Shown: positions 2,598 through 20,000 of the stretch, piece after piece
Numbering within the stretch: position 1 is the first letter of the stretch
How the letters are laid out: each line of letters starts with the position of its first letter
IMG/VR virus record: IMGVR_UViG_3300010885_047555
Direction: 5' to 3' (one strand)
Origin: an uncultured virus (IMG/VR IMGVR_UViG_3300010885_047555)
Lineage: Duplodnaviria > Heunggongvirae > Uroviricota > Caudoviricetes
DNA: 20,000 nt
The notes under the pieces: model-generated
Told to the model about the DNA's origin: nothing
Database searches by the model: none
Seen by the model: only the letters and a program-made list of their open reading frames with translations
Made by a program: the position numbers and the translations under genes

Positions 2598-2948
2598 ATG
2601 GACGCTACAATAATTTCAGCAATTTCAGTAACATGTTTTATTTTTGGTTTTTCTTTAAGTGCCTATATGTCGTATTTATCTAAAAAAATAGAAAATAAAA
2701 CTAGTGAAGAATTTGAAGTTGGAATAAGAAAAAAAGCCGCCATGGAGTTATCAATGCACGCATATTTTCAGCTTGGAGAAGTTGTAGATAAAGAACTTCT
2801 GCAAGAAATGTCATCAGAATTAATTGGCTTTAACTTAGGCTTGCACACAGCAGGTTTAATTATCAACAGCGAGCCAGGCTCACGACTATTGATAGTAGAA
2901 AAAGTAAGCGATGATGGAGAAATTGTCTACGACGTGGAGAAAACGTGA
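2598..2948 (+). CDS. Hypothetical protein with N-terminal transmembrane helix
   Basis: IISAISVTCFIFGFSLSAYM hydrophobic helix. ATG at 2598 follows AAGGGA (alternative starts 2571, 2583); GTGA overlap with the next gene. Confidence 0.65.
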   Translation: MDATIISAISVTCFIFGFSLSAYMSYLSKKIENKTSEEFEVGIRKKAAMELSMHAYFQLGEVVDKELLQEMSSELIGFNLGLHTAGLIINSEPGSRLLIVEKVSDDGEIVYDVEKT

Positions 2949-3523
2949 CTACAATAATTGCAGTACAAGGCACTGGCTGGGCAAGCATGGGATACGATTC
3001 AGCCGTGACAGAAGCTCATAAAAAATCAATAGTAAAAAATTCTAAATATTTTAAGCGCGGTGAGTTTCACGTTGTATTTGCTGGAGACTTAAGAGCGGGA
3101 CAGATTATTTCAAATGAACTAATTTTACCGTCATCTAAAAGTATTGTCACCTACGAAGAATTTGATAAATATATTTATTCTGATTTCATTGGTTCATTAA
3201 TCAATGTATTAAAGGATAATGATGTAGAACTGACAGAAGAAAAAGGGTGGCCAATTGAAATGCTTGTCATGTGGAATGGAATTGTATGTGAAGTAAGTTC
3301 CGATCTATCTTTTGGTAGAGAAGACAGAGGAATGTACGCTCTAGGAACGGGCCAGGGATATGGCTTGGGAGCGTTATCCGCGTTGTACAGCGGAGGAACA
3401 CAAAAAAGCGCTAATGAAGCAATTAAACAAGCGCTTACAATCGCATCTGAATATGATGCTTATACAGGGCTACCAGCCAATGTAATATCAACAAAATTAA
3501 AATCCAATTGGAAGGATATATAA
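2945..3523 (+). CDS. Ntn-hydrolase, proteasome beta-subunit/HslV-like threonine protease
   Basis: After Met removal: Thr1 (TTIIAV), Asp17 (GYDS), Lys33, then FAGD, ALGTG (GSG equivalent) and C-terminal DAYTG. These positions match the 20S-beta/HslV catalytic set. Confidence 0.85.
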   Translation: MTTIIAVQGTGWASMGYDSAVTEAHKKSIVKNSKYFKRGEFHVVFAGDLRAGQIISNELILPSSKSIVTYEEFDKYIYSDFIGSLINVLKDNDVELTEEKGWPIEMLVMWNGIVCEVSSDLSFGREDRGMYALGTGQGYGLGALSALYSGGTQKSANEAIKQALTIASEYDAYTGLPANVISTKLKSNWKDI

Positions 3524-9537: not shown

Positions 9538-11172
9538 ATGTCCGTTAGCGGAGAATTTCTTGCCAATATCACGGACACAGCTCTGCCTGGAGACGGTATC
9601 CCACAGAACGTCAATCCAATGGCCGAACTCGGTATCACGGGTCTTAGACGCTTTTCCGGTTATGTTGATGAAGAATTCCTACCACAACTGCGTGGTCGTA
9701 AAGCCGTACAGGTTTACAAAGAAATGGCAGACAACGACCCAATCGTGGGAGCGTTGTTATTTGCTATTGATCGCCTTGTACGTCAAGTAGAGTGGCGCGT
9801 AGAGCCGGCATCTGGCTCCGTGGAGGCTAAAGCAGCAGCCAAGTTCGTTGAAGAGTGCATGGAAGATATGTCTCATACTTGGGACGACTTTATTGCCGAA
9901 GTAGCTACCATGAACATTTATGGTTGGTCATGGCACGAAATCGTATATAAGCGCCGTGTAGGTATGTGGGAAACAGACCCCAAGAAGCGTTCAAGATTCT
10001 CAGATAACAAAATTGGCTGGCGCAAGATGCCTATCCGCGCACAAGAAACGTGGCTGCGCTGGGTATTTGATGAATCTGGTGGCGTAAAAGCGTTAGTACA
10101 GCTTGCCCCACCGCACTACAAATTGGTAGTTATCCCAATCGAGAAGTCTCTTTTGTTCCGTACTACGGTAACAAAGAACAACCCAGAGGGCAGATCCCTA
10201 CTGCGTAACGCTTACCGCCCGTGGTACATGAAGAAACGCCTTGAGGAAATTGAAGGTATTGGTGTAGAACGTGACCTTGCCGGTCTTCCAGTAGCAAAGG
10301 TTCCTGCCGCGTATTTGAATGCCAAACCAGGTTCTGACCAAGCAAAGATGGTTGATGCATTTCGGAAGATGGTTCGCTCTGTACGTAGAGATGAACAAGA
10401 AGGCATCATCCTCCCACAAGCATTTGACCAAGACACCAACCAGCCGTTATTTGGATTTGAGCTCCTGACCTCGGGTGGCGGGCGCTCATTTAATACTAAC
10501 GAGATTATCCAAAGATATGAGCAAAGAATGCTTATGTCTGTATTGGCCGACTTCATCATGGTAGGCCATTCGGGCACTGGTTCATATGCCCTCCATACGG
10601 ACAAGACAGGCCTTTTCAGGGCCTCAATGAACTCCATCACCCGTTCTATTGCCAACACCCTAAATAGACACGCTATACCACGTCTATTCGCCATTAACGG
10701 GTGGAAGACTGACGAGCTACCTAAGTTTGTACCTGGAGACATCGATCCACCAGATTTGGGTCAATTGTCGCAGTTTATGACCTCTATGACTTCAGCCGGA
10801 GCGAACTGGTTCCCAGATGAGCAACTAGAGAAGTTCTTGCGCAATGCTGCACGCCTACCAGAGATGGGCTCGGACGAAGAAAAGGTCAAGGAAGAGATGA
10901 CCCGACAGAGTCTCATTATTCAGCAGGCAAAGCAGCAGCTTGAAGCCCTACAACTACAGCAACAAGCACAACAGGGAATCATGTCTACCCAGACACAAGA
11001 ACTCGGTCTGCAACAACAACAGCAGGCAGCCGCACAAACACCAGAACAACGGGCAAATCAAGCGGCAAAAGATGACGAAAACCATTCTTTGCAGTCACAA
11101 AAGCAGCAACTAGATATTGAAGCACAGAAGAAGGAAATGTCTAAGACCGCCCCTAGCGACAAGAAGAAGTAA
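9538..11172 (+). CDS. Portal protein (DUF935-like) with Gln-rich C-terminal tail
   Basis: Follows terL; YGWSWHEIVY, NPEGRSLLRNAYRPW and ERDLAGLP motifs of DUF935-type portals; AGGAG RBS. Confidence 0.88.
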   Translation: MSVSGEFLANITDTALPGDGIPQNVNPMAELGITGLRRFSGYVDEEFLPQLRGRKAVQVYKEMADNDPIVGALLFAIDRLVRQVEWRVEPASGSVEAKAAAKFVEECMEDMSHTWDDFIAEVATMNIYGWSWHEIVYKRRVGMWETDPKKRSRFSDNKIGWRKMPIRAQETWLRWVFDESGGVKALVQLAPPHYKLVVIPIEKSLLFRTTVTKNNPEGRSLLRNAYRPWYMKKRLEEIEGIGVERDLAGLPVAKVPAAYLNAKPGSDQAKMVDAFRKMVRSVRRDEQEGIILPQAFDQDTNQPLFGFELLTSGGGRSFNTNEIIQRYEQRMLMSVLADFIMVGHSGTGSYALHTDKTGLFRASMNSITRSIANTLNRHAIPRLFAINGWKTDELPKFVPGDIDPPDLGQLSQFMTSMTSAGANWFPDEQLEKFLRNAARLPEMGSDEEKVKEEMTRQSLIIQQAKQQLEALQLQQQAQQGIMSTQTQELGLQQQQQAAAQTPEQRANQAAKDDENHSLQSQKQQLDIEAQKKEMSKTAPSDKKK

Positions 11173-12387
11173 ATGATTAGTGCCTTTGGGATAGAACATG
11201 GCGTAGCAATTGTAAAGGCTGAGCGTTATGACCCTAAAAAACATAAAGTACTGAAGCCTGGTTATCATTTAATGGTCGAAGATCATGGGGCCAACAAAGG
11301 GGCTAGACGCACTAAAACTGTTTTAGCGGATAATGAATTACGCAATTACAACTTAAACAGGGCCGTTAGCACTTATGAGCAAAAAATACAGCGTAAGGTT
11401 ACTAAGCCTGAATTTGAAATGCTAAGACGCGAACAAATAAAGGGAATTTGGCGCCCAAATCATCATACCTCTAGGAACAGTTCTTCTACAGGTATAGACA
11501 GAGAAAACGTAAACGGAATTAATGACACTAGCAGCAATTACGACACTAAACGTTTTTGGACCGACAAAGAAAGAATTGATAGGGATCAAAAGCTAAGAGC
11601 GGCACTTAAAACACGTCGTAAAAAGATTGTAAAGTCGTTTTTATCTGTAAACGGTCCAGACATGGGAACTTCTAAGCCAATTACGTCAATGTCTACAAAC
11701 GAGCGCGCTAACTTGCGTTCGAGCCTTATAAGACAAACGGATGCACGTAAACAGAAGAAAATCTTTACCGGTCCGTTGAAAAGGCCATTTGACGCGTCTA
11801 AACGACCTAATGAAGTATCTGAACAATTTAAAAATCGTTCGCGGGTAAAACGTACAGAGGCAAGAGAACTGCATTTGTCACAAAAACCAGCAGAAGCCGT
11901 AGAGGTTCTACAAAGAGCTAAGTTTGCACCATCAAAAAGTCAAATGCTTAAAATTGGTTTGAGTTCTGCTATTGCTAGCGGAGCGGCAAGAGAACTAAAA
12001 AGGCGTCACAGCGTTTCTAAGGCTATGAACAAGAATAGAAGAGTAGACGCTGGTATCGGAGCTGCTGGAGGCGCAAGCGCCATGGTGGCGGCAAATGAAG
12101 TAGGCGGATGGGCAGCAAAACGCTCAATTGAGTCCTATAGACATAAGAACTGGGACAACAAGGTACATAATCCAATCTGGTCAGAACACAGAAAGAAATA
12201 CGGTGTTGAACAGGCAAAAAGTGGAAAAGTTCCGCTGGAGTTTTTTGAGAAGTATCCAAAGGCATTGCCTGGCAGTAAGGCAACGAGAATTCTAGCAATT
12301 AAAAACAGACCGAGCGTAGCCACTGCAAGTATCACAAGCGCTGCAGCACTAGGAGCAGCGTTAGCTTCGAGGAGAAAAACCAAATGA
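11173..12387 (+). CDS. Basic modular protein, putative internal virion (cargo) polyprotein
   Basis: Abuts the portal stop. Leader MISAFGIEHGVAIVK|A, internal IVK|S and VSK|A sites; K/R-rich with Gly/Ala hydrophobic segments. Confidence 0.7.
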   Translation: MISAFGIEHGVAIVKAERYDPKKHKVLKPGYHLMVEDHGANKGARRTKTVLADNELRNYNLNRAVSTYEQKIQRKVTKPEFEMLRREQIKGIWRPNHHTSRNSSSTGIDRENVNGINDTSSNYDTKRFWTDKERIDRDQKLRAALKTRRKKIVKSFLSVNGPDMGTSKPITSMSTNERANLRSSLIRQTDARKQKKIFTGPLKRPFDASKRPNEVSEQFKNRSRVKRTEARELHLSQKPAEAVEVLQRAKFAPSKSQMLKIGLSSAIASGAARELKRRHSVSKAMNKNRRVDAGIGAAGGASAMVAANEVGGWAAKRSIESYRHKNWDNKVHNPIWSEHRKKYGVEQAKSGKVPLEFFEKYPKALPGSKATRILAIKNRPSVATASITSAAALGAALASRRKTK

Positions 12388-12980
12388 TTAGTCCGTTTGG
12401 GGTAGAACACGGTGGAATATATAAAGCCAAAGATCCATGCTGGGACGGTTACAAACAAGAAGGCATGAAGAATAAGGGCGGAAGATTAGTCCCCAATTGC
12501 ATTCCAAAAACAAAGAAGGTTTCTAAATCCTGGCAAACTAAGGATGGCAAGAACCCAAAAGGTGGTCTCAACGAAAAGGGTCGCAAGTCGTACGAGCGAG
12601 AGAACCCGGGTTCAAACCTAAAGCCACCAGTAAAGGCCGGAAACAATCCTAGAAGGTCCTCATTCCTTGCCCGTATGGGTAACATGCCGGGACCAGAACA
12701 TAAACCTAATGGTGAGCCTACGAGACTCCTATTATCGTTGCAGGCATGGGGAGCTTCGTCTAAAGCAGATGCAAAAAGAAAAGCAGCAGCAATATCCAAA
12801 GGTTTTATTCCACCAGAACCAATAAGAAAATTACCTACGCACGCAATTGTCAATGGACGTAAATTCAGAGTTTCTCACATAGAAAACGATTGGGTGTATG
12901 TACATGACGAAAATGGAGTAATGGGGCATCATAGAAGCCGCGTTATATTTCCTAAAACAAGAAAGCCAAAACAGCCTTAA
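12384..12980 (+). CDS. Modular protein with CWDGY...VPNC module and DUF6321-like module, putative internal virion polyprotein
   Basis: Leader MISPFGVEHGGIYK|A; modules DPCWDGY...VPNCIP and WQTKDGKNPKGGLNEKGR...RRSSFLARM...SLQAWG; ATGA overlap with the previous gene. Confidence 0.75.
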   Translation: MISPFGVEHGGIYKAKDPCWDGYKQEGMKNKGGRLVPNCIPKTKKVSKSWQTKDGKNPKGGLNEKGRKSYERENPGSNLKPPVKAGNNPRRSSFLARMGNMPGPEHKPNGEPTRLLLSLQAWGASSKADAKRKAAAISKGFIPPEPIRKLPTHAIVNGRKFRVSHIENDWVYVHDENGVMGHHRSRVIFPKTRKPKQP

Positions 12981-13033
12981 CCTGGCTAGTATTATTTGAG
13001 ACAATTAGACAATAGTTGCCCATAGGAGCAGAT

Positions 13034-16000
13034 GTGACATTCAATCCAATTTCAAGAGCTAAACTCGGCGTAGCTGCAGACGACCCATTTTTTGATGATG
13101 ATGCAGCGGCAAAGATGTACCACGAGATTAGCAAAATGGATCAAGATGAAGCCACTGTTTTGCTGCAGATGGCTGCTTTTCACGTTGCAGCAAGAGACCT
13201 TACCCGCTACGGCGAAGTCATTGAGGCTGGATACAACAAAGAGATTGCCAAGCGCGCAGAACGCGTAAAAGGCACACTTACTCGCAATCTAATTTCAAAG
13301 GGAAAAGACCCCGCACCATATCTTGCCTATTTAGACGAAATCTCCAAAGCCGTTGATCCAATCACTGATTGGGATATATCTAATAGAGTAAAGCGACAGT
13401 TGCGCGATCCAGGTGGACGTTTCCGCGTCATGACTCACAAAATTGAGCCAAATATTCTTGATAAACCCATCAGAGCGGGAGAAGCGCAAAAACTTGGTAT
13501 CCCAAAGCCATCTAGGGCTGGAGGAACTGATAAAGGTGTGCGTCTAGACGATGCTGCCAATAAGAAGTTTCAAGGCGATTACTATCAAGTATCTAATCTT
13601 TTAAAAACCATCCAAAATGATCCAATTACAGCTAAGGGCGCAGTCGTAACCCTTAATTACACGGATGGTACGACTGATCAATTCCTGACTACTGAGGGAC
13701 AAGACAAATTAAAAGATAAGTTTGCGGGAGAGAAATACGCAACCGGCAATCGTGTAGCCTCTGTAGACTTAAGTTTCTTGCGAGAAGATAACCCTCAAAT
13801 CGACCTCATGTCAGCAATGGGAGTTCCCGGTGGCGGTATGAGAAATCAAGCTATTAATTACATGTCAAACGTCAACGGTCAAGATAAAGCTTTGGTTGAT
13901 TACGGCACTAGCATGAATTCATATAGAGACACAGACGTATTAAACCCAGCAGACCGTGCCTACAGAAGACTTGGTGCGACGGCAAATCTTCTTTCTAACA
14001 TACTTCCGGACTCTGCAATTAAGACTCAACTTGCTCTTAACGCTGCCAAATGGGCAGGATTTAACGCCACTGAGGTTGAACGTGTTATAGGACCGGGAGC
14101 ACGTAAAGTGGCTTACCGATACCGAGGCATCGAAAAAGCTCCTAATCCTGGGCTACAAAAAACTATTGACGCCTATATTGCTGGAACCAAGGGTAATAAG
14201 GACAAGGCTAGAGATATTCTCATTAACGGTTCCAATGTTGAAATGGCCACAAACAATGGAGTTCGTCAAGAATTCAAGGAAAGCCCAATCATTCAGTACT
14301 TGGTTAAAGATCTTCCAAAGAAAGAATTGGTAAACCTTCAGACTAAATCGGGAGCGATGCCACCCTCACGTGGATATATTATTGATCGCAACGGAAAGAT
14401 TATTACTGAAGCTGCCGGCTACGGAGATGACCATTATCTTCCGTTTAACCTAAAAAACATCTCAAAGCTAAAAGGCGGAGAATACGTACGTACGCGTACG
14501 CTAGGTGGACCTACTACAGAAGACATCTACGCAGGCCTCATTTCTGGTGCTCGTAGCGTCACCGTTGTATCGCGCTCAGGTATCTACACCGTAGAGTTTG
14601 ATGAAGCTTTCCGTGGATCGCGTCGCTATAACGATAAGGCCGCTCGTATGGTTGGCCGTTATGGAATGATTCTTGATGCCGTTAAGAGCGGAGATGTAAC
14701 TCTCGAAACGGTACCTGGCGACAGAATCGAAGAACTCAAATCTGAGGCATTCCGACTATACCCAGACGAAACCAGCGAAGGCTATGCGAGAGAACTTAAT
14801 AGATTAAAGAAAGTTGAAGAATCTAATCCTCGCATGTCGCAGACGCGTTTGGACGAGACCGCCAGAGAATTCCTTCGCACAGTAGCTTCGCGCCAGAAGA
14901 CCAGAGATGGCTCTGAAATGACCTATGACGAAATGGTTGCAGGTCTTATCAATAGAGACGTAGCAACACAGGTCGCGGAAGACACAGCATGGCTGGGTGG
15001 CATTCAAGGGGCACCTACTGGAACCATTGAAGCTAACGCTAGAGAAATGATTGCTACCAAATACAAGAACCCAGAAGCAATTATTAATACCATTGGTCTA
15101 GACGACGAATATAACAAATTCTTTGAAACCCAGATGAAAACCTATAAGGCTTCGCAAGCACCATTGCGCCTAGACGGTCCGGGATATGCTTTTGCACTTG
15201 ACGCAATGAAAGAACAATTCCCTTATTACATTAAGAGCATCAAATATCGCCAGCTTAATCAGTCGGACGCTGATACTCGCAGGGACGTTGGTTATGTTAA
15301 ACCTAATTTCACGCGTCCAGAAGGTGTTCAGGCTGGATACTACGATGCTTCAATTAATGGATCAAAGAAGATTAGCGCTGACCGTCTTAACTATCAAAAC
15401 CTAAGAGTGGTGGGAACTTACGATAGATCTGGCGGACAACAGCCCGTAGATTACAATCCCCCTGCAAATCGTAGAGCAGAAACGAACAACGGTAATGAGG
15501 ACAAAAACGTTGGATTTGGGGATACCAGAACACCAAACAGTAATCCGGAAACAAAAAAGAATTCAGCAAAAGACGTAAGAGAAATGTTCCAAAAACGTAC
15601 TGCTACCGACAGAAACTATAATTCTCCTAAATTTGGCGTGGTTGCTAGCGGGTCAGAACTCGATGTGCACTTCAAAGCAGCTTTTCCATTTACCTTTGGC
15701 ATGACTCCTACAGAATTTGATGAAGCTTGGGACGACAATCCAGACATGGTTGAAGCTTCAATGAAAAGAGAAATTGCTCAGTTGAGAGAGTTCTTCACTC
15801 TAGGAAACAGCGAATCTGCCAAGTTATTTGCCTTTAACAATGGTGGAAATGTGCCAATCATGAAATATGACAGACTAAACCCACCGTTGTCTGAAATTCT
15901 AAAAGGATCAAAATTTGACTTTGGCGACCCTCTGTTTATGCCTGGAATTGAATCCGACAGAATTAAAGCAAAACTTGAAACTGATCCAAATCTAGCTGGC

Positions 16001-16432
16001 GCCAAGGCTAAAATTGTAGGAGCACTAGAAGCGGCTAAAATGCCTAAAGAGATGCTTACCGAGCCAACACCAGAATTGGTAAGGGCGATTAAAGAAATAG
16101 TGAACCAACAGGTAAAAAATGTTCAAGCAATCAAAACAGACCAGGAGAGCACTGGTATGAAAGTTTACGGCCCAGAACGTTTAACGCAAGAAGCAAATTC
16201 CTTGGCCGATTTAACCAAAGTATGGCAACTTACGGACAATTATGTCCAGTCTGTAATAACAGAGGCCAAAACTGCTCGTGAGCGTCAAATGATTGAGTCT
16301 GGGGCGGGTTCCGGTCCGCGGGTTATTGGCTTGAATGTAAATGACGAAGATGCTATGAATAAAATTATTGAAGCCTTTGGACTTCCTAAGAATAAGGTTA
16401 TTGACGAAAACGGAAACTACGTAGATGTCTGA
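13034..16432 (+). CDS. Large (about 1130 aa) putative internal head/ejection protein with a degenerate JAB/MPN-like domain
   Basis: AGGAG at 13024-13028 favours the GTG start at 13034. N-terminal IxK sites, an RDPGGRF motif, and a JAB-like segment at about 14360-14600. Confidence 0.7.
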   Translation: MTFNPISRAKLGVAADDPFFDDDAAAKMYHEISKMDQDEATVLLQMAAFHVAARDLTRYGEVIEAGYNKEIAKRAERVKGTLTRNLISKGKDPAPYLAYLDEISKAVDPITDWDISNRVKRQLRDPGGRFRVMTHKIEPNILDKPIRAGEAQKLGIPKPSRAGGTDKGVRLDDAANKKFQGDYYQVSNLLKTIQNDPITAKGAVVTLNYTDGTTDQFLTTEGQDKLKDKFAGEKYATGNRVASVDLSFLREDNPQIDLMSAMGVPGGGMRNQAINYMSNVNGQDKALVDYGTSMNSYRDTDVLNPADRAYRRLGATANLLSNILPDSAIKTQLALNAAKWAGFNATEVERVIGPGARKVAYRYRGIEKAPNPGLQKTIDAYIAGTKGNKDKARDILINGSNVEMATNNGVRQEFKESPIIQYLVKDLPKKELVNLQTKSGAMPPSRGYIIDRNGKIITEAAGYGDDHYLPFNLKNISKLKGGEYVRTRTLGGPTTEDIYAGLISGARSVTVVSRSGIYTVEFDEAFRGSRRYNDKAARMVGRYGMILDAVKSGDVTLETVPGDRIEELKSEAFRLYPDETSEGYARELNRLKKVEESNPRMSQTRLDETAREFLRTVASRQKTRDGSEMTYDEMVAGLINRDVATQVAEDTAWLGGIQGAPTGTIEANAREMIATKYKNPEAIINTIGLDDEYNKFFETQMKTYKASQAPLRLDGPGYAFALDAMKEQFPYYIKSIKYRQLNQSDADTRRDVGYVKPNFTRPEGVQAGYYDASINGSKKISADRLNYQNLRVVGTYDRSGGQQPVDYNPPANRRAETNNGNEDKNVGFGDTRTPNSNPETKKNSAKDVREMFQKRTATDRNYNSPKFGVVASGSELDVHFKAAFPFTFGMTPTEFDEAWDDNPDMVEASMKREIAQLREFFTLGNSESAKLFAFNNGGNVPIMKYDRLNPPLSEILKGSKFDFGDPLFMPGIESDRIKAKLETDPNLAGAKAKIVGALEAAKMPKEMLTEPTPELVRAIKEIVNQQVKNVQAIKTDQESTGMKVYGPERLTQEANSLADLTKVWQLTDNYVQSVITEAKTARERQMIESGAGSGPRVIGLNVNDEDAMNKIIEAFGLPKNKVIDENGNYVDV

Positions 16433-16784
16433 TATTAAGGTATATAACGTTAGATTCGCTAAAGGTGCTACTTGGAAGCTTGCCTTTACATGGTATGACA
16501 AAAACGCAACAACTGGGGTAAAGACGGCAAAGAACCTAACTGGATACACTGCAAAACTGCAAATTAGACGTTCTGGTACAGCCATTTTAACGACCAGTAC
16601 AGCGCTTAACACTATTACCCTAGGTGGAACTGCTGGAACGGTAGTTTCAATCGCTTCAGCAACCCTTACAGGGGCTTGTGACGCAGGTTCTGCGGAGTGG
16701 GCTATTGAACTAACCTCCAGCGGAGGTGAAGTTACAGAGGTGCTTCGTGGTCAAGCAATGATTGAACCGGAGATTGTAGTTTGA
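16425..16784 (+). CDS. Virion structural adaptor (BppU N-terminal-like beta protein)
   Basis: KGATW...NLTGYTAKLQIR...GTV...WAIEL....GEV..VLRG is a pattern common in phage proteins that precede fibre genes. Confidence 0.7.
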   Translation: MSDIKVYNVRFAKGATWKLAFTWYDKNATTGVKTAKNLTGYTAKLQIRRSGTAILTTSTALNTITLGGTAGTVVSIASATLTGACDAGSAEWAIELTSSGGEVTEVLRGQAMIEPEIVV

Positions 16785-18703
16785 TTGAAGTAATCGAGAT
16801 TGAGGTAAACCCTACTGTCGTAGAGGTAATAGGAACAAATTCTTCTGTAGAGATTACAGAAGAGATGTTTGTAATCGAGACCTCTGGTGTTGGCATTCAG
16901 GGTATTGATGGACCACAGGGTGCAACGGGTTCGTCAGGTCCTGCTAACACTTTATCTGTTGGTACCGTCACTGTGGGTGCGGCGGCGGCAAGTATTACTG
17001 GCACTGCTCCGACACAAACTTTAAATCTTGTTTTGCAGACTGGTCCGCAAGGAACTAATGGTTCTCAGGGTGCACAAGGCGCACAGGGCGCACAAGGTGC
17101 ACAGGGCGCAACAGGTTCAACAGGTGCAACAGGTGTTGGATATTCTGGGGTTGTTTCAACTAGCGCAATCACCATTGGAACGGGAATCAAAACTTTCAGC
17201 TTGACGGGTGGAAATGCTGGCGCGTTCATTACTGGCCAACGAATCCGCGCGATTCATAGTGAGACACCAACTTATTGGATGGAAGGTTACGCCAATTACA
17301 TTGGTGGTGGAACTTTAATTCTGACAGTTGATGTGATTGCAGGTAGTGGTTCACACAACAACTGGAACTTTGGCATCGCTGGCCAGGTTGGTTCACAAGG
17401 TGCAACTGGGCCACAAGGTGCACAAGGTGCACAGGGTAGTCAGGGTGCGGCTTCTACTGTTGCAGGTCCACAGGGTGCACAGGGTTCCGCTGGCGCACAA
17501 GGTGCTGCTGGAACGAACGGCACTAATGGTTCTCAAGGTGCACAAGGTGCACAGGGCTCTGCGGGCACTAACGGAACTAACGGTTCTCAAGGTTTCCAAG
17601 GTGCTCAAGGGTCTCAAGGTAATCAAGGCGCACAAGGCGCACAAGGTGCTACTCCTGCTCTAGGTTCCGCTACACCATTGGCTGTCAGCACAGCCGCCGT
17701 TGGTACTGCAACAAATGCTTCGCATGAAGACCACATTCACCCAACAACTAACTTGGCGCTACTTAACGCGGCTAATGCGTTCACTGTTGGCGGTCATGTA
17801 ATCCCTGCGGAAAATACTTCAACAGTGAACTTGATTTTGAAACTCAACGGCGCAGTTGGCAGTGGCATTGACCCGCTTCGGATTCAAACTAGCGGTGGAA
17901 CAACACTTGGTTACATCAACAACTATGGTGGTTTTTACGGAGCAGCATTTGGACCCGCTAATCAAACTGGCGGATTCATTACAACTGCCAACTCGTCAAC
18001 CGTTTCCATAGCAACAAATGTGACAACCACTGTTCCGCTTACCGTCAAGGGTGCAGCGTCTCAGACAGCCAATTTGCAATCTTGGACAAACTCCGCGGGA
18101 ACAGTTCTTGCCTACATTGACTCGGCTGGCAACACAAACTTCAGCGGCTCAGGTTCATGGGTTCAATCATCCACAGGTAAAGCCGCTTTTATTGTAAACT
18201 CTGCCACAGCAATTCCTCTCACCGCCAAAGGTGCGTCTGGTCAATCCGCCAACTTGCAAGAATGGCAAAATAGTGCTGGAACAGTGCTGGCTTATATTGA
18301 CTCGGCTGGTGTTCAATATGTTCAATCAGGTTTGTATGTTGGTTTGTATCCCGCTGGAACCCGCGCCGCTATCACTACTGGTTCGGCAGCAACCATCGGA
18401 CTCATAGTTCGTGGTGTTGTGTCCCAGACGGCTAACTTGCAAGAATGGCAAAACTCTAGCGGAACTGTGCTTACCTCTGTAAATGCTTACGGTTCCGTAG
18501 GTATTGTTGGAACCGCGTTTACATCTAGCGCACAGTTATTTATTCGTACTGGAGCAGCGTCATATGTTGGTGCTGCTATTAGAGGTGAAGTCTCTCAAAC
18601 AGGCGACTTGCAACAATGGCAAAATAGTGGTGGAACTGTGTTGGCAAAGGTAGACTCTGCGGGTGCTTTTCAAGCAGTAACCATTGACGGCGGAAGCGCC
18701 TAA
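16781..18703 (+). CDS. Collagen-repeat fibre protein with repeated C-terminal modules
   Basis: Gly-X-Y blocks (GAQ, GSQ, GTN), ASHEDHIHP motif, four QxxNLQxWxNSxGTVL repeats, terminal IDGGSA; TTGA overlap start. Confidence 0.88.
   Translation: MIEVIEIEVNPTVVEVIGTNSSVEITEEMFVIETSGVGIQGIDGPQGATGSSGPANTLSVGTVTVGAAAASITGTAPTQTLNLVLQTGPQGTNGSQGAQGAQGAQGAQGATGSTGATGVGYSGVVSTSAITIGTGIKTFSLTGGNAGAFITGQRIRAIHSETPTYWMEGYANYIGGGTLILTVDVIAGSGSHNNWNFGIAGQVGSQGATGPQGAQGAQGSQGAASTVAGPQGAQGSAGAQGAAGTNGTNGSQGAQGAQGSAGTNGTNGSQGFQGAQGSQGNQGAQGAQGATPALGSATPLAVSTAAVGTATNASHEDHIHPTTNLALLNAANAFTVGGHVIPAENTSTVNLILKLNGAVGSGIDPLRIQTSGGTTLGYINNYGGFYGAAFGPANQTGGFITTANSSTVSIATNVTTTVPLTVKGAASQTANLQSWTNSAGTVLAYIDSAGNTNFSGSGSWVQSSTGKAAFIVNSATAIPLTAKGASGQSANLQEWQNSAGTVLAYIDSAGVQYVQSGLYVGLYPAGTRAAITTGSAATIGLIVRGVVSQTANLQEWQNSSGTVLTSVNAYGSVGIVGTAFTSSAQLFIRTGAASYVGAAIRGEVSQTGDLQQWQNSGGTVLAKVDSAGAFQAVTIDGGSA
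17042..17650 (+). repeat. Collagen-coding 9-nt tandem repeats (CAAGGTGCA-like) in two blocks
   Basis: Blocks at about 17042-17140 and 17381-17650 encode (GAQ/GSQ/GTN)n and flank a globular insert. Confidence 0.85.
18030..18665 (+). repeat. Four approximately 60-codon repeats in the fibre C-terminus
   Basis: Repeat cores begin at about 18062, 18242, 18425 and 18596, e.g. GCCAACTTGCAAGAATGGCAAAA. Confidence 0.85.
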
Positions 18704-18721
18704 TAACCTTAAGGAAAAATA

Positions 18722-18949
18722 ATGGCAATTGATTTCTCAACCCTATTAACAACTGAGCAAAAGCGTTCCGTACTTACTGCCCGTGTAGAGCAGTTTGCTA
18801 ATGAAGGCTACCAGCACACCCTCAACAAACAAATCTCTGAATCTGTTGGAGATGCCGAAGGTGTGGCTGCTTCTGACGCCGCTATTGCAACCATCTCAGC
18901 AGCGATTGAAATCCATCAGGCAGAACTCGCTGCCCTACCAGCGGAGTAA
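18722..18949 (+). CDS. Small acidic helical protein between fibre genes (possible fibre chaperone or accessory)
   Basis: AAGGA RBS; 75 aa, Ala/Glu-rich; function inferred only from position. Confidence 0.7.
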   Translation: MAIDFSTLLTTEQKRSVLTARVEQFANEGYQHTLNKQISESVGDAEGVAASDAAIATISAAIEIHQAELAALPAE

Positions 18950-18953
18950 TTAA

Positions 18954-20000
18954 ATGGCAGTCAAGACGACCATCCAGACACGTAGAGATACCGCTGCCAA
19001 CTGGACTTCAACCAACCCCACATTAGCGGCTGGTGAAATTGGCTACGAGACAGATACCCACACTTTTAAGATCGGTACTGGCTCTACGGCGTGGACTTCT
19101 TTGGCTTATCAAAATACGACTGGTGCTCAAGGTCCACAGGGTTATCAGGGTGCTACTGGTGCTCAAGGACCACAAGGCTATCAAGGTTCTATTGGAAATC
19201 AAGGTTCTCAGGGATTTCAAGGCTACCAAGGTTCGACCGGCACCAATGGTGCACAAGGTTCACAAGGTTCACAAGGTGCACAAGGCGCACAGGGTTTTCA
19301 AGGTGCTCAAGGTTTTCAAGGTTCAACAGGAACTGGATCACAGGGCGCACAAGGCGCACAAGGTTCAGCTGGTACCAACGGAACCAACGGAACCAACGGA
19401 ACCAATGGTGCGCAAGGTGCACAAGGTTCTCAAGGTTCTCAAGGTTCTCAAGGTTACAAATCAGGCTTGCGTTATGCTTGGCAAACGCAAGCAGACTACA
19501 GTTCAAACGCTGGTGTTTATGCTGGTGGGTACATTGCTCCGAGTAGTGATGCCAGTTGGGCTGCAATCACAAGCCTTCTTATTGGTCGAGAAGACCAGTT
19601 TGCAAACAATCAAGCCGCTTACATTCAACTTTTCAACAGTGTTGTCGGTCCCAAAAAGGGACAGATTGTTCTCAAAGGTGATTCAAACTCCAGCACATCG
19701 TGGGCTTCGTTCAATGTCACTGGAACAATAACTCAAGACTCAGATGGCTATGTGATTTGGTATGTAGTACCTGTCACCTATGTCAGTTCAGGATCAACTT
19801 TCTCGTCAGCCAACAAAGTTCAAATAGATTTCATGCTGGCTGGCGACAATGGCGCAAGTCTTCTTTACGCCAATAGGTCGCAGCGTTACTACCCTGTACA
19901 AAACTGGGGTGCTCTTGCAGGTTCAACTCAGGCTCTTGCCGCTGACCGAATGGTCGCTGTTCCGTTCTTGACAGGAAACGCATCACTAAGCATTGACAGA
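18954..20000 (+). CDS. Second collagen-repeat fibre protein with Mtd_N/hyaluronidase-N-like domain; 3'-truncated and absent from the ORF track
   Basis: ATG 18954 reads MAVKTTIQTRRDTAANWTSTNPTLAAGEIGYETDTHTFKIGTGSTAWTSLAY, then (GAQ/GSQ/GTN)n at about 19121-19456. The frame stays open to the window end. Confidence 0.9.
   Translation, partial: MAVKTTIQTRRDTAANWTSTNPTLAAGEIGYETDTHTFKIGTGSTAWTSLAYQNTTGAQGPQGYQGATGAQGPQGYQGSIGNQGSQGFQGYQGSTGTNGAQGSQGSQGAQGAQGFQGAQGFQGSTGTGSQGAQGAQGSAGTNGTNGTNGTNGAQGAQGSQGSQGSQGYKSGLRYAWQTQADYSSNAGVYAGGYIAPSSDASWAAITSLLIGREDQFANNQAAYIQLFNSVVGPKKGQIVLKGDSNSSTSWASFNVTGTITQDSDGYVIWYVVPVTYVSSGSTFSSANKVQIDFMLAGDNGASLLYANRSQRYYPVQNWGALAGSTQALAADRMVAVPFLTGNASLSIDR

Follow-up and report, generated by a model that had tools for sequence, protein, structure and literature searches.

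Lys-specific head maturation is known from HK97 and SPO1-like phages. Phage T4 is the textbook example of a short capsid-targeting tag, and its protease gp21 cuts after L/I-x-E (sections cited from PMC9026906). A second family, XkdF (PF14550; PBSX XkdF), has been named a likely head-processing peptidase, with no substrate rule in the cited section of PMC7824862. T4-GC119/Syn9 gp114 is called a hypothetical protein, its processing not being described in the cited part of PMC3037559; a supplement of that paper (file 2, row 119) marks the cyanophage family T4-GC119 'YES' for virion proteomic data, with phage and peptides unspecified. Here we analyze a 20,000-nucleotide stretch of DNA (the window) from an uncultured virus (IMG/VR IMGVR_UViG_3300010885_047555), in which two genes behind a portal gene, ORF1 and ORF2, share a leader with a SAFG-type tag and, together with the following ORF3, contain recurring Lys sites. 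It is probable that all three are prohead-core proteins, that an XkdF protease cuts them after Lys, and plausible that the tag acts as a docking peptide.

Results

ORF1 (11173-12387, 404 residues) opens with MISAFGIEHGVAIVK followed by Ala, and ORF2 (12384-12980, 198 residues) with MISPFGVEHGGIYK followed by Ala. An earlier annotation made from these letters only (the sequence-only reading) had described two adjacent genes with near-identical leaders, and both lie exactly where it placed them. Its eight internal sites could also be confirmed, the codons of the residue behind the Lys (P1') starting at 11635, 12022, 12528, 12801, 13136, 13253, 13301 and 13349. On the plus strand of the 35-kb source contig, FG[IV][ED]H occurs only in ORF1 and ORF2; a six-frame scan of the contig for the looser [SND][AP]F[GF] gave 10 matches, and only those of ORF1 and ORF2 stand at a gene start. 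The motif [IV]xK[ASG] accounts for 6/72 Lys in ORF1 and ORF2 versus 11/504 in the other contig genes (Fisher p=0.012), and for 8/82 when ORF3 residues 1-130 are included (p=0.002). Residue shuffles of ORF1, ORF2 and the ORF3 start gave 2.05 expected against 8 observed (p=0.0016). The pattern appears real, but the window by itself provides modest evidence, and the strong evidence comes from relatives of this phage.

A portal scan found 106 relatives, of which 80 were retained. The tag, in the form [SND]-[AP]-F-G-[IV]-x-H, is carried by many unrelated basic proteins of these relatives. It was present in 9 of the first 83 loci, this phage itself included, and the DNA pattern Met-x-S-A-F-G-[IV]-[DE]-H matched at least 177 stretches. 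We analyzed 219 distinct instances from loci L004-L266, collected with a search pattern that favoured N-terminal copies and contained no Lys: 185 are N-terminal, 16 C-terminal and 18 located elsewhere. The description as an N-terminal leader is thus right for the majority and too narrow for the remainder. The first Lys after an N-terminal tag has Ile or Val at P3, two residues ahead of it, in 168/185 cases and Phe in 13/185, the baseline for Ile/Val being 11.9% of Lys in other genes. Ser occupies P2 in 128/185. P1' is Ala, Gly or Ser in 120/185, with Leu, Arg, Phe, Val, Lys and others in the remaining 65, and a strict rule of a small residue behind the Lys, as first proposed, had to be given up in favour of a preference. 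Synonymous sites of the tag codons vary freely (Ser as AGY in 131 and TCN in 87 of 220), which indicates that selection acts on the tag peptide; together with the C-terminal copies, this variation rules out a DNA-level or ribosome-binding origin. NAFG, DAFG, SPFG and DPF(G) occur as variants. The leader is, as had been suspected from two genes, a genuine tag that is widespread in relatives and conserved at the protein level. We found no published description of it in a literature search that left most subscription papers uncovered.

The Lys sites had also been placed at module borders, and relatives bear this out, as their modules reorder at these joints (modules are defined in Table 1). The best single result is protein P0002, one of two non-self matches among 8000 scored candidates. 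Its modules run A (ORF2), b (ORF1), B/DUF6321 (ORF2), c (ORF1), an arrangement that involves all four internal sites of ORF1 and ORF2. P0002 has 57 Lys and only four [IV]xK, three of which are the joints VAK84, VNK219 and ISK310, and its DUF6321 block is 88% identical to that of the window. In P0003, b and c come behind a DPFG leader and are followed by another c-like copy. Homologues of module b begin behind VEK (L041, L042), VAK (P0002) or the leader VSK (P0003). Those of module c start near [IVF]xK in 14/19 rows, or in 10/13 non-redundant ones (self row, one fragment and four duplicates left out) versus 0.20 for random 20-residue windows; in L009 module c directly follows the tag. Module turnover and shuffling are high across relatives.

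By eye, the scaffolds of 7/10 further genomes contain an inserted basic Gly/Ala-rich module flanked by two Lys sites. Such basic modules also lie ahead of the catalytic domain in protease genes of relatives. Their presence in scaffold and protease genes ties the modules to the prohead interior without need of a tag. The XkdF gene of Roseobacter phage CRP-6 (gp55, L352:9686-10375) has a basic module between two Lys sites, and this module by eye also ends a Glu-jointed protein of the T4-like phage Melnitz (L358). In L055:19446-20366, a VSK joint connects a Dps/ferritin domain with a basic cargo module.

We counted the motif in head genes of five relatives (G001-G005). [IV]xK makes up 410/3445 Lys in their other genes and is present in 21/22 leaders, which are 12-19 residues long. 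The sequence-only reading had proposed looking for the same site in the scaffold, and the four scaffolds are indeed packed with it (33/53 Lys; 6.4 expected by shuffle). N-terminal domains of ORF3-type proteins, their border being set by default at 200 in G004 and G005, show 29/73 (9.3 expected). The motif is avoided in ORF3-type bodies (5/313; 28.4 expected), and tagged cargo contains 20/391 (34.9 expected). Arg and Glu controls counted likewise are flat or slightly raised and show no such pattern. Ten further scaffolds have 92/133 Lys in [IVLF]xK, and XkdF is found in 10/10 of these genomes. Cultured bacterial phages of this capsid type show the scaffold bias in 7/7 cases (p<=0.003 each), in phages of Actinobacteria and Proteobacteria alike. 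The Lys sites hence behave like a protease footprint, in which proteins that would be destroyed in the prohead are rich in the motif and survivors avoid it. The site was also expected at the N terminus of the capsid protein and is missing there: 27 capsid sequences start at or next to the conserved N terminus, and no N-terminal segment that could be cleaved off is present in the major capsid protein of relatives.

ORF2 residues 55-122 match DUF6321 (PF19846) with 87.8 bits versus a curated cut-off of 28.5, and modules A and B together matched 518 phage records, mostly T4-like cyanophages, which carry them in the same order with Glu joints. Glu precedes DUF6321 in 8/8 cyanophage records (4 strict hydrophobic-x-E, 4 V-x-N-E; by eye), and hydrophobic-x-K in 0/8. 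The Lys form stands ahead of the domain in the window, L023, L029, L034, L046 and P0002 (by eye); as the sequences are related, no p-value is given for this comparison. Stand-alone DUF6321 begins exactly where the VSK joint of the window ends, and the domain is closed by hydrophobic-x-K in 7/7 fused portal relatives and in P0002. We considered that ISK before Gly (12801) might merely descend from the end of the module itself (AIS[AKE]R in stand-alone genes), an explanation disfavoured by these closing Lys sites. DUF6321 and Peptidase_S78 occur together in 24% of one Atlas cluster. A literature search found nothing on DUF6321 or on the proteomics of cyanophage gp114.

These data also bear on whether there is proteolysis at all. 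The Lys motifs could be relics of linkers from genes that fused at their shared leader DNA, and helix periodicity could account for the scaffold bias: a tagged gene joined to the end of another would leave [IV]SK behind, and some internal joints do retain the full tag. Such a scheme, however, leaves unexplained the avoidance in ORF3-type bodies (5 vs 28), a scaffold bias restricted to Lys with flat Arg and Glu controls, the Glu joints of the same modules in T4-like phages and the free synonymous variation, and we consider it very improbable. Processing of ORF1-3 by cleavage in the prohead is, from these comparisons, likely.

The most likely start of ORF3 is GTG 13034, preceded by AGGAG, which gives a protein of 1132 residues with its last site at K105. 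Its N-terminal domain is a predicted propeptide; among 20 homologues, K34 is conserved in 10, K73 in 9, K89 in 11 and K105 in 18. An RDxxG[RQ]F-type motif follows this domain (~13403-13426) and is also seen in the MuF proteins and cargo modules that relatives encode. ORF3 has no match in Pfam, PHROGs or the cultured-phage collection, and an Atlas search with residues 400-620 gave none. A conserved domain (14249-14758) has a predicted fold that is JAB/MPN or deaminase-like (~14249-14610; predicted local distance difference test score 84). The best structural match is middling (5ld9, Z 6.7, root mean square deviation 3.0, 93 residues aligned), tied with the deaminase 9k3e, and Foldseek returned no match at E<=0.001. 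R81, R83 and D92 of this central region are invariant in 48 sequences. Where JAB proteins have H-x-H there is R-x-R, and no His is found among the invariant or near-invariant columns, so that the H-x-H zinc ligands of JAB are lacking.

The protease in the head operon of relatives scores as PF14550 (XkdF, Peptidase_S78_2). H65 and S126, which we take to be catalytic by analogy to the S78 family, are invariant in 35 relatives. A profile search of the Protein Data Bank with XkdF gave nothing below E 0.65. We found no Lys-specific rule in the cited portions of PMC3601020, PMC12282133, PMC4351075, PMC3706429, PMC6409932 and PMC10713586. The Lys-specific prohead protease postulated from the window has its probable counterpart in this XkdF-type gene, and the scaffolds are packed with the motif; for this phage itself, no protease gene was found. 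The cutter could then be a trypsin-like enzyme of the host or a different one from the phage, and the putative JAB-like fold of ORF3 could offer one. Yet that fold lacks the His pair, all 15 larger relatives examined have XkdF, with the invariant His and Ser, in their head operon, and the same scaffold bias is seen in phages of both Actinobacteria and Proteobacteria. A different cutter is in our view a slim prospect, and XkdF quite likely performs the cleavage.

What the tag does is a separate question. Cutting could be real and SAFG a protease-recruiting or self-association motif, loading then proceeding via the basic modules or via co-translation in the head operon. This would fit a tag found N-terminally, C-terminally and internally, the many cargo-like genes of tagged phages without tag, SAF repeats in one MuF, and a SAFF found behind a Lys site at the same position in 12/19 aligned scaffolds (for example L133:12265-13077; absent in 7, including G001 and G002). 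C-terminal tags, on the other hand, have no Lys site behind them to help, the first cut would remove the tag as with T4 capsid-targeting sequences, and a tagless subclade has modules fused into the scaffold instead, which counts as one evolutionary event only. We thus regard a role other than address as unlikely and lean toward a tag that targets proteins to the prohead. The scaffold SAFF is a hint that tag and scaffold may share a binding site.

In the tagless subclade, the inserted basic module occupies the scaffold slot where others have SAFF (L367-L372, L375). Low-complexity repeats of SAF or NPL motifs are seen in L013:8022-10130 and in the L261 MuF (G002 15769-17526), and the MuF SAF/NPL repeats resemble tag variants of the same phages.

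The six predicted pieces of ORF1 and ORF2 (34-139 residues, isoelectric point (pI) 9.8-11.4) are all strongly basic. No known enzyme family was found among them in Pfam and PHROG searches, in which ORF1 had no meaningful family match and ORF2 matched unknown-function families only. No shorter homologue of ORF1 was found among 2222 candidates, and module C had no homologue by profile search. After packing and cutting of this kind, the pieces could instead be ejected and act in the host as effectors of anti-defence or takeover, in the manner of T4 IPI, which is small and basic and inhibits restriction; many T4 internal proteins are ejected (PMC9026906, cited sections). High module turnover and shuffling, the Dps/ferritin fusion at a Lys joint in L055 and the JAB/deaminase-like fold in ORF3 speak for this possibility. 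Against it, the families found give no sign of such a function, the basic pieces would suit DNA binding equally well, and DUF6321 shows high conservation among phages whose hosts are unrelated, unlike host-specific effectors. We consider ejection as host-acting effectors plausible, though not the expected outcome.

Table 1. Features of the head operon segment in the window
Feature	Position	Strand	Evidence or relatives
Portal protein, start of head operon	9538..11172	+	PF06074 E=2e-34; phrog_113
ORF1 leader, SAFG tag ending at IVK, 15 residues	11173..11217	+	~219 instances in relatives
ORF1 module a, 139 residues, pI 10.3	11218..11634	+	no secure homologue; one weak match E=0.66
ORF1 module b, 129 residues, pI 11.4, between IVK and VSK joints	11635..12021	+	homologues behind Lys joints
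ORF1 module c, 121 residues, pI 10.6, basic, Gly/Ala-rich ends	12022..12387	+	homologues near [IVF]xK
ORF2 leader, SPFG tag variant ending at IYK, 14 residues	12384..12425	+	DPFG/DAFG/NAFG variants in relatives
ORF2 module A, 34 residues, CWxGY...PNC	12426..12527	+	phrog_727 and others; common to T4-like cyanophage proteins
ORF2 module B = DUF6321, 91 residues, pI 10.7, between VSK and ISK joints	12528..12800	+	PF19846 E=8e-25
ORF2 module C, 59 residues, pI 10.6, small, beta-rich looking	12801..12980	+	by eye like module after DUF6321 in L023
ORF3 N-terminal domain (predicted propeptide), 105 residues, pI 5.6, four Lys sites	13034..13348	+	Lys conservation
ORF3 body, 1027 residues	13349..16432	+	conserved across clade; RDxxGRF-type motif near start

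The source contig (G000) is 35 kb long, 44% complete and actinophage-like. Its gene content includes WhiB, terminase and a Mu-type portal, which is ~47% identical to that of Arthrobacter phage Shrooms; from these features the host is inferred to be actinobacterial. A quick tree of 76 portals places the portal of the window as sister to L005/L006/L007/L055 (Shimodaira-Hasegawa-like approximate likelihood ratio test 95), and XkdF is present in this sister group (the G001 group). An overlapping 20-kb contig extends G000 by only ~1.4 kb, and no overlapping viral contig was found at its left end. The same phage is also represented by L361 (99.8% over 10 kb), a metagenome contig of 65 kb that reaches ~30 kb past that end and may contain tail or capsid genes.

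Two complete relatives of 81 kb (G004, G005) have the order portal, ORF3 homologue, MuF, XkdF protease, scaffold, decoration-type gene, capsid, neck, tail tube and tape measure (1980 residues), with tagged genes scattered through the head region. In G001-G005, 28/28 tagged genes are on the strand of the structural genes. In the window, collagen-like fibre genes directly follow ORF3 (16425-20000), where relatives have MuF and protease; gene order after ORF3 differs from that of the sister group. A proteasome beta-subunit-like (Ntn-fold) gene with a weak Pfam match (E=0.004) is found at 2945-3523, upstream of an M23 peptidase endolysin. The terminase of one relative (L013:22-1725) is split by an intein-like insertion that overlaps an opposite-strand HNH-like ORF (by eye).

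Discussion

Comparison of sequences establishes the tag, the joints, shuffling at the joints, enrichment and avoidance of the motif, and a protease gene in relatives. We propose that ORF1, ORF2 and ORF3 are prohead-core proteins of a clade of long-tailed actinophages and would be built into the procapsid together with the scaffold. An XkdF-family protease would then cut after Lys in hydrophobic-x-K, mostly [IV]-[SAE]-K, with loose requirements at P1'. Cutting would shred the scaffold and the ORF3 N-terminal domain, strip the 14-15-residue tag, and release six basic pieces of 4-17 kDa from ORF1 and ORF2. The pieces would stay beside the DNA inside the head, chiefly serving as core proteins that bind DNA or balance charge, and some may be ejected. 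The SAFG tag would be a portable docking peptide for the prohead core and not the only loading route: a module could also be loaded through fusion with the scaffold, the protease or a tagged chain.

Several findings weigh against this proposal. No protease, scaffold or capsid gene was found in G000 at 44% completeness, the PF14550 count in its head operon being 0/1 for an incomplete contig that lacks the protease region; as G000 has no capsid and protease genes of its own, the mechanism rests on relatives. Within the contig, the Lys-matched enrichment foreseen by the sequence-only reading holds for [IV]xK[ASG], a motif picked post hoc, but not for [IV][SEA]K (3/72 vs 22/504 Lys in ORF1 and ORF2 and in other genes; p=0.63). 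Two of the four ORF3 sites, EISK before Met and EIAK before Arg, break the small-residue rule, and the ORF3 body of the window is not clearly depleted ([IV]xK 5/75 Lys; combined share of Ile and Val 11%). The sequences compared are related, so that p-values overstate their independence. DUF6321 stands alone, without tag or joint, in 80/80 best of 599 viral loci, and L041 and L042 join b to c without a canonical site. The tag is missing from all 28 rows of the subclade that keeps Lys joints (DNA of partial loci) and from 20 kb around the capsid gene in seven genomes of this subclade; the many untagged cargo-like genes noted above point the same way. No cultured tagged phage emerged, a tblastn search of the phage collection, insensitive to a 7-residue tag, giving no match for a tagged protein, ORF3 or scaffold. 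The XkdF-fused scaffold of halovirus HHTV-2 is unbiased (4/23). We found no report of XkdF substrate specificity in the literature searched, and all capsid relatives tested have an XkdF-like gene, so that there is no control with the same capsid and another protease: Shrooms, Ottawa and ValentiniPuff, intended as non-XkdF controls, gave weak XkdF matches (E 4e-4, 2e-5 and 0.011, respectively).

If the proposal is correct, a non-homologous tag and a different protease in siphoviruses would mean that the T4-like loading design arose more than once. More broadly, there may be a second, independently evolved loading code, in which a position-independent SAFG[IV]xH sends any protein to the proheads of actinobacterial siphoviruses and XkdF frees it at hydrophobic-x-K. 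A pool of basic modules would cross phage families, their joints adapted to whichever protease is resident, Glu for gp21 and Lys for XkdF, as a swappable kit delivered with the DNA. We put this wider scheme forward tentatively, at a little short of even chances. Hydrophobic-x-K is a testable rule for the XkdF family, whose specificity we did not find described in the literature; CRP-6, RDJL Phi 1, KPP23 and Shrooms are cultured and share this capsid and protease. Our comparisons also suggest a head role for DUF6321 and related tiny basic proteins, which are abundant in aquatic phages, and a 7-residue loading tag would serve protein delivery into actinobacteria.

We compared this system to described ones. 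Modular MuF-fused and polyvalent phage proteins are likewise head-associated, with proposed delivery alongside the DNA (PMC5512222, cited sections), and the MuF gene in the operon of relatives and the putative JAB-like fold of ORF3 parallel them. They carry enzymatic domains, whereas here we find tiny basic modules, a shared tag and regular Lys joints. The ejection-protein propeptides of SPN3US and phiKZ, ~110-250 residues long with several cut sites, resemble the 105-residue ORF3 N-terminal domain (PMC10052503 and PMC9026906, cited sections); these giant myoviruses differ in their A-x-E specificity and gp21-like protease, and most head proteins there are uncut according to the same sections. 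The cyanophage protein T4-GC119/Syn9 gp114 has module A and DUF6321 in the same order and chains of small basic modules (PMC3037559, cited part), but Glu joints and no SAFG tag. For the XkdF family, our analysis predicts hydrophobic-x-K as its cutting rule.

The sequence-only reading had likened the genes to T4 internal proteins as analogous but distinct, and we agree: the system would work alike, but its defining site and protease differ, and we do not count it among the T4 family. As with T4 IPI-III and Alt and their capsid-targeting sequence, unrelated small basic proteins share a short propeptide, and a three-residue hydrophobic-x-P1 site is repeated through the scaffold in a late head-operon context (PMC9026906, cited sections). 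The leader lengths fall within the 10-19 residues of the T4 propeptides, and the pieces behind them are basic as well. In contrast to the L/I-x-E site of T4, leaders here end in [IVF]xK, and the Glu control is flat in scaffolds and N-terminal domains. Instead of gp21/S77 and T4-type head genes, the relatives have XkdF/S78_2 (PF14550), a Mu-type portal and a phrog_1005 capsid. Unlike its T4 counterpart, the tag has no sequence likeness to the T4 one, can also be C-terminal or internal, and belongs to siphovirus-type genomes of ~70-80 kb with shuffled polyprotein cargo and a capsid protein without propeptide.

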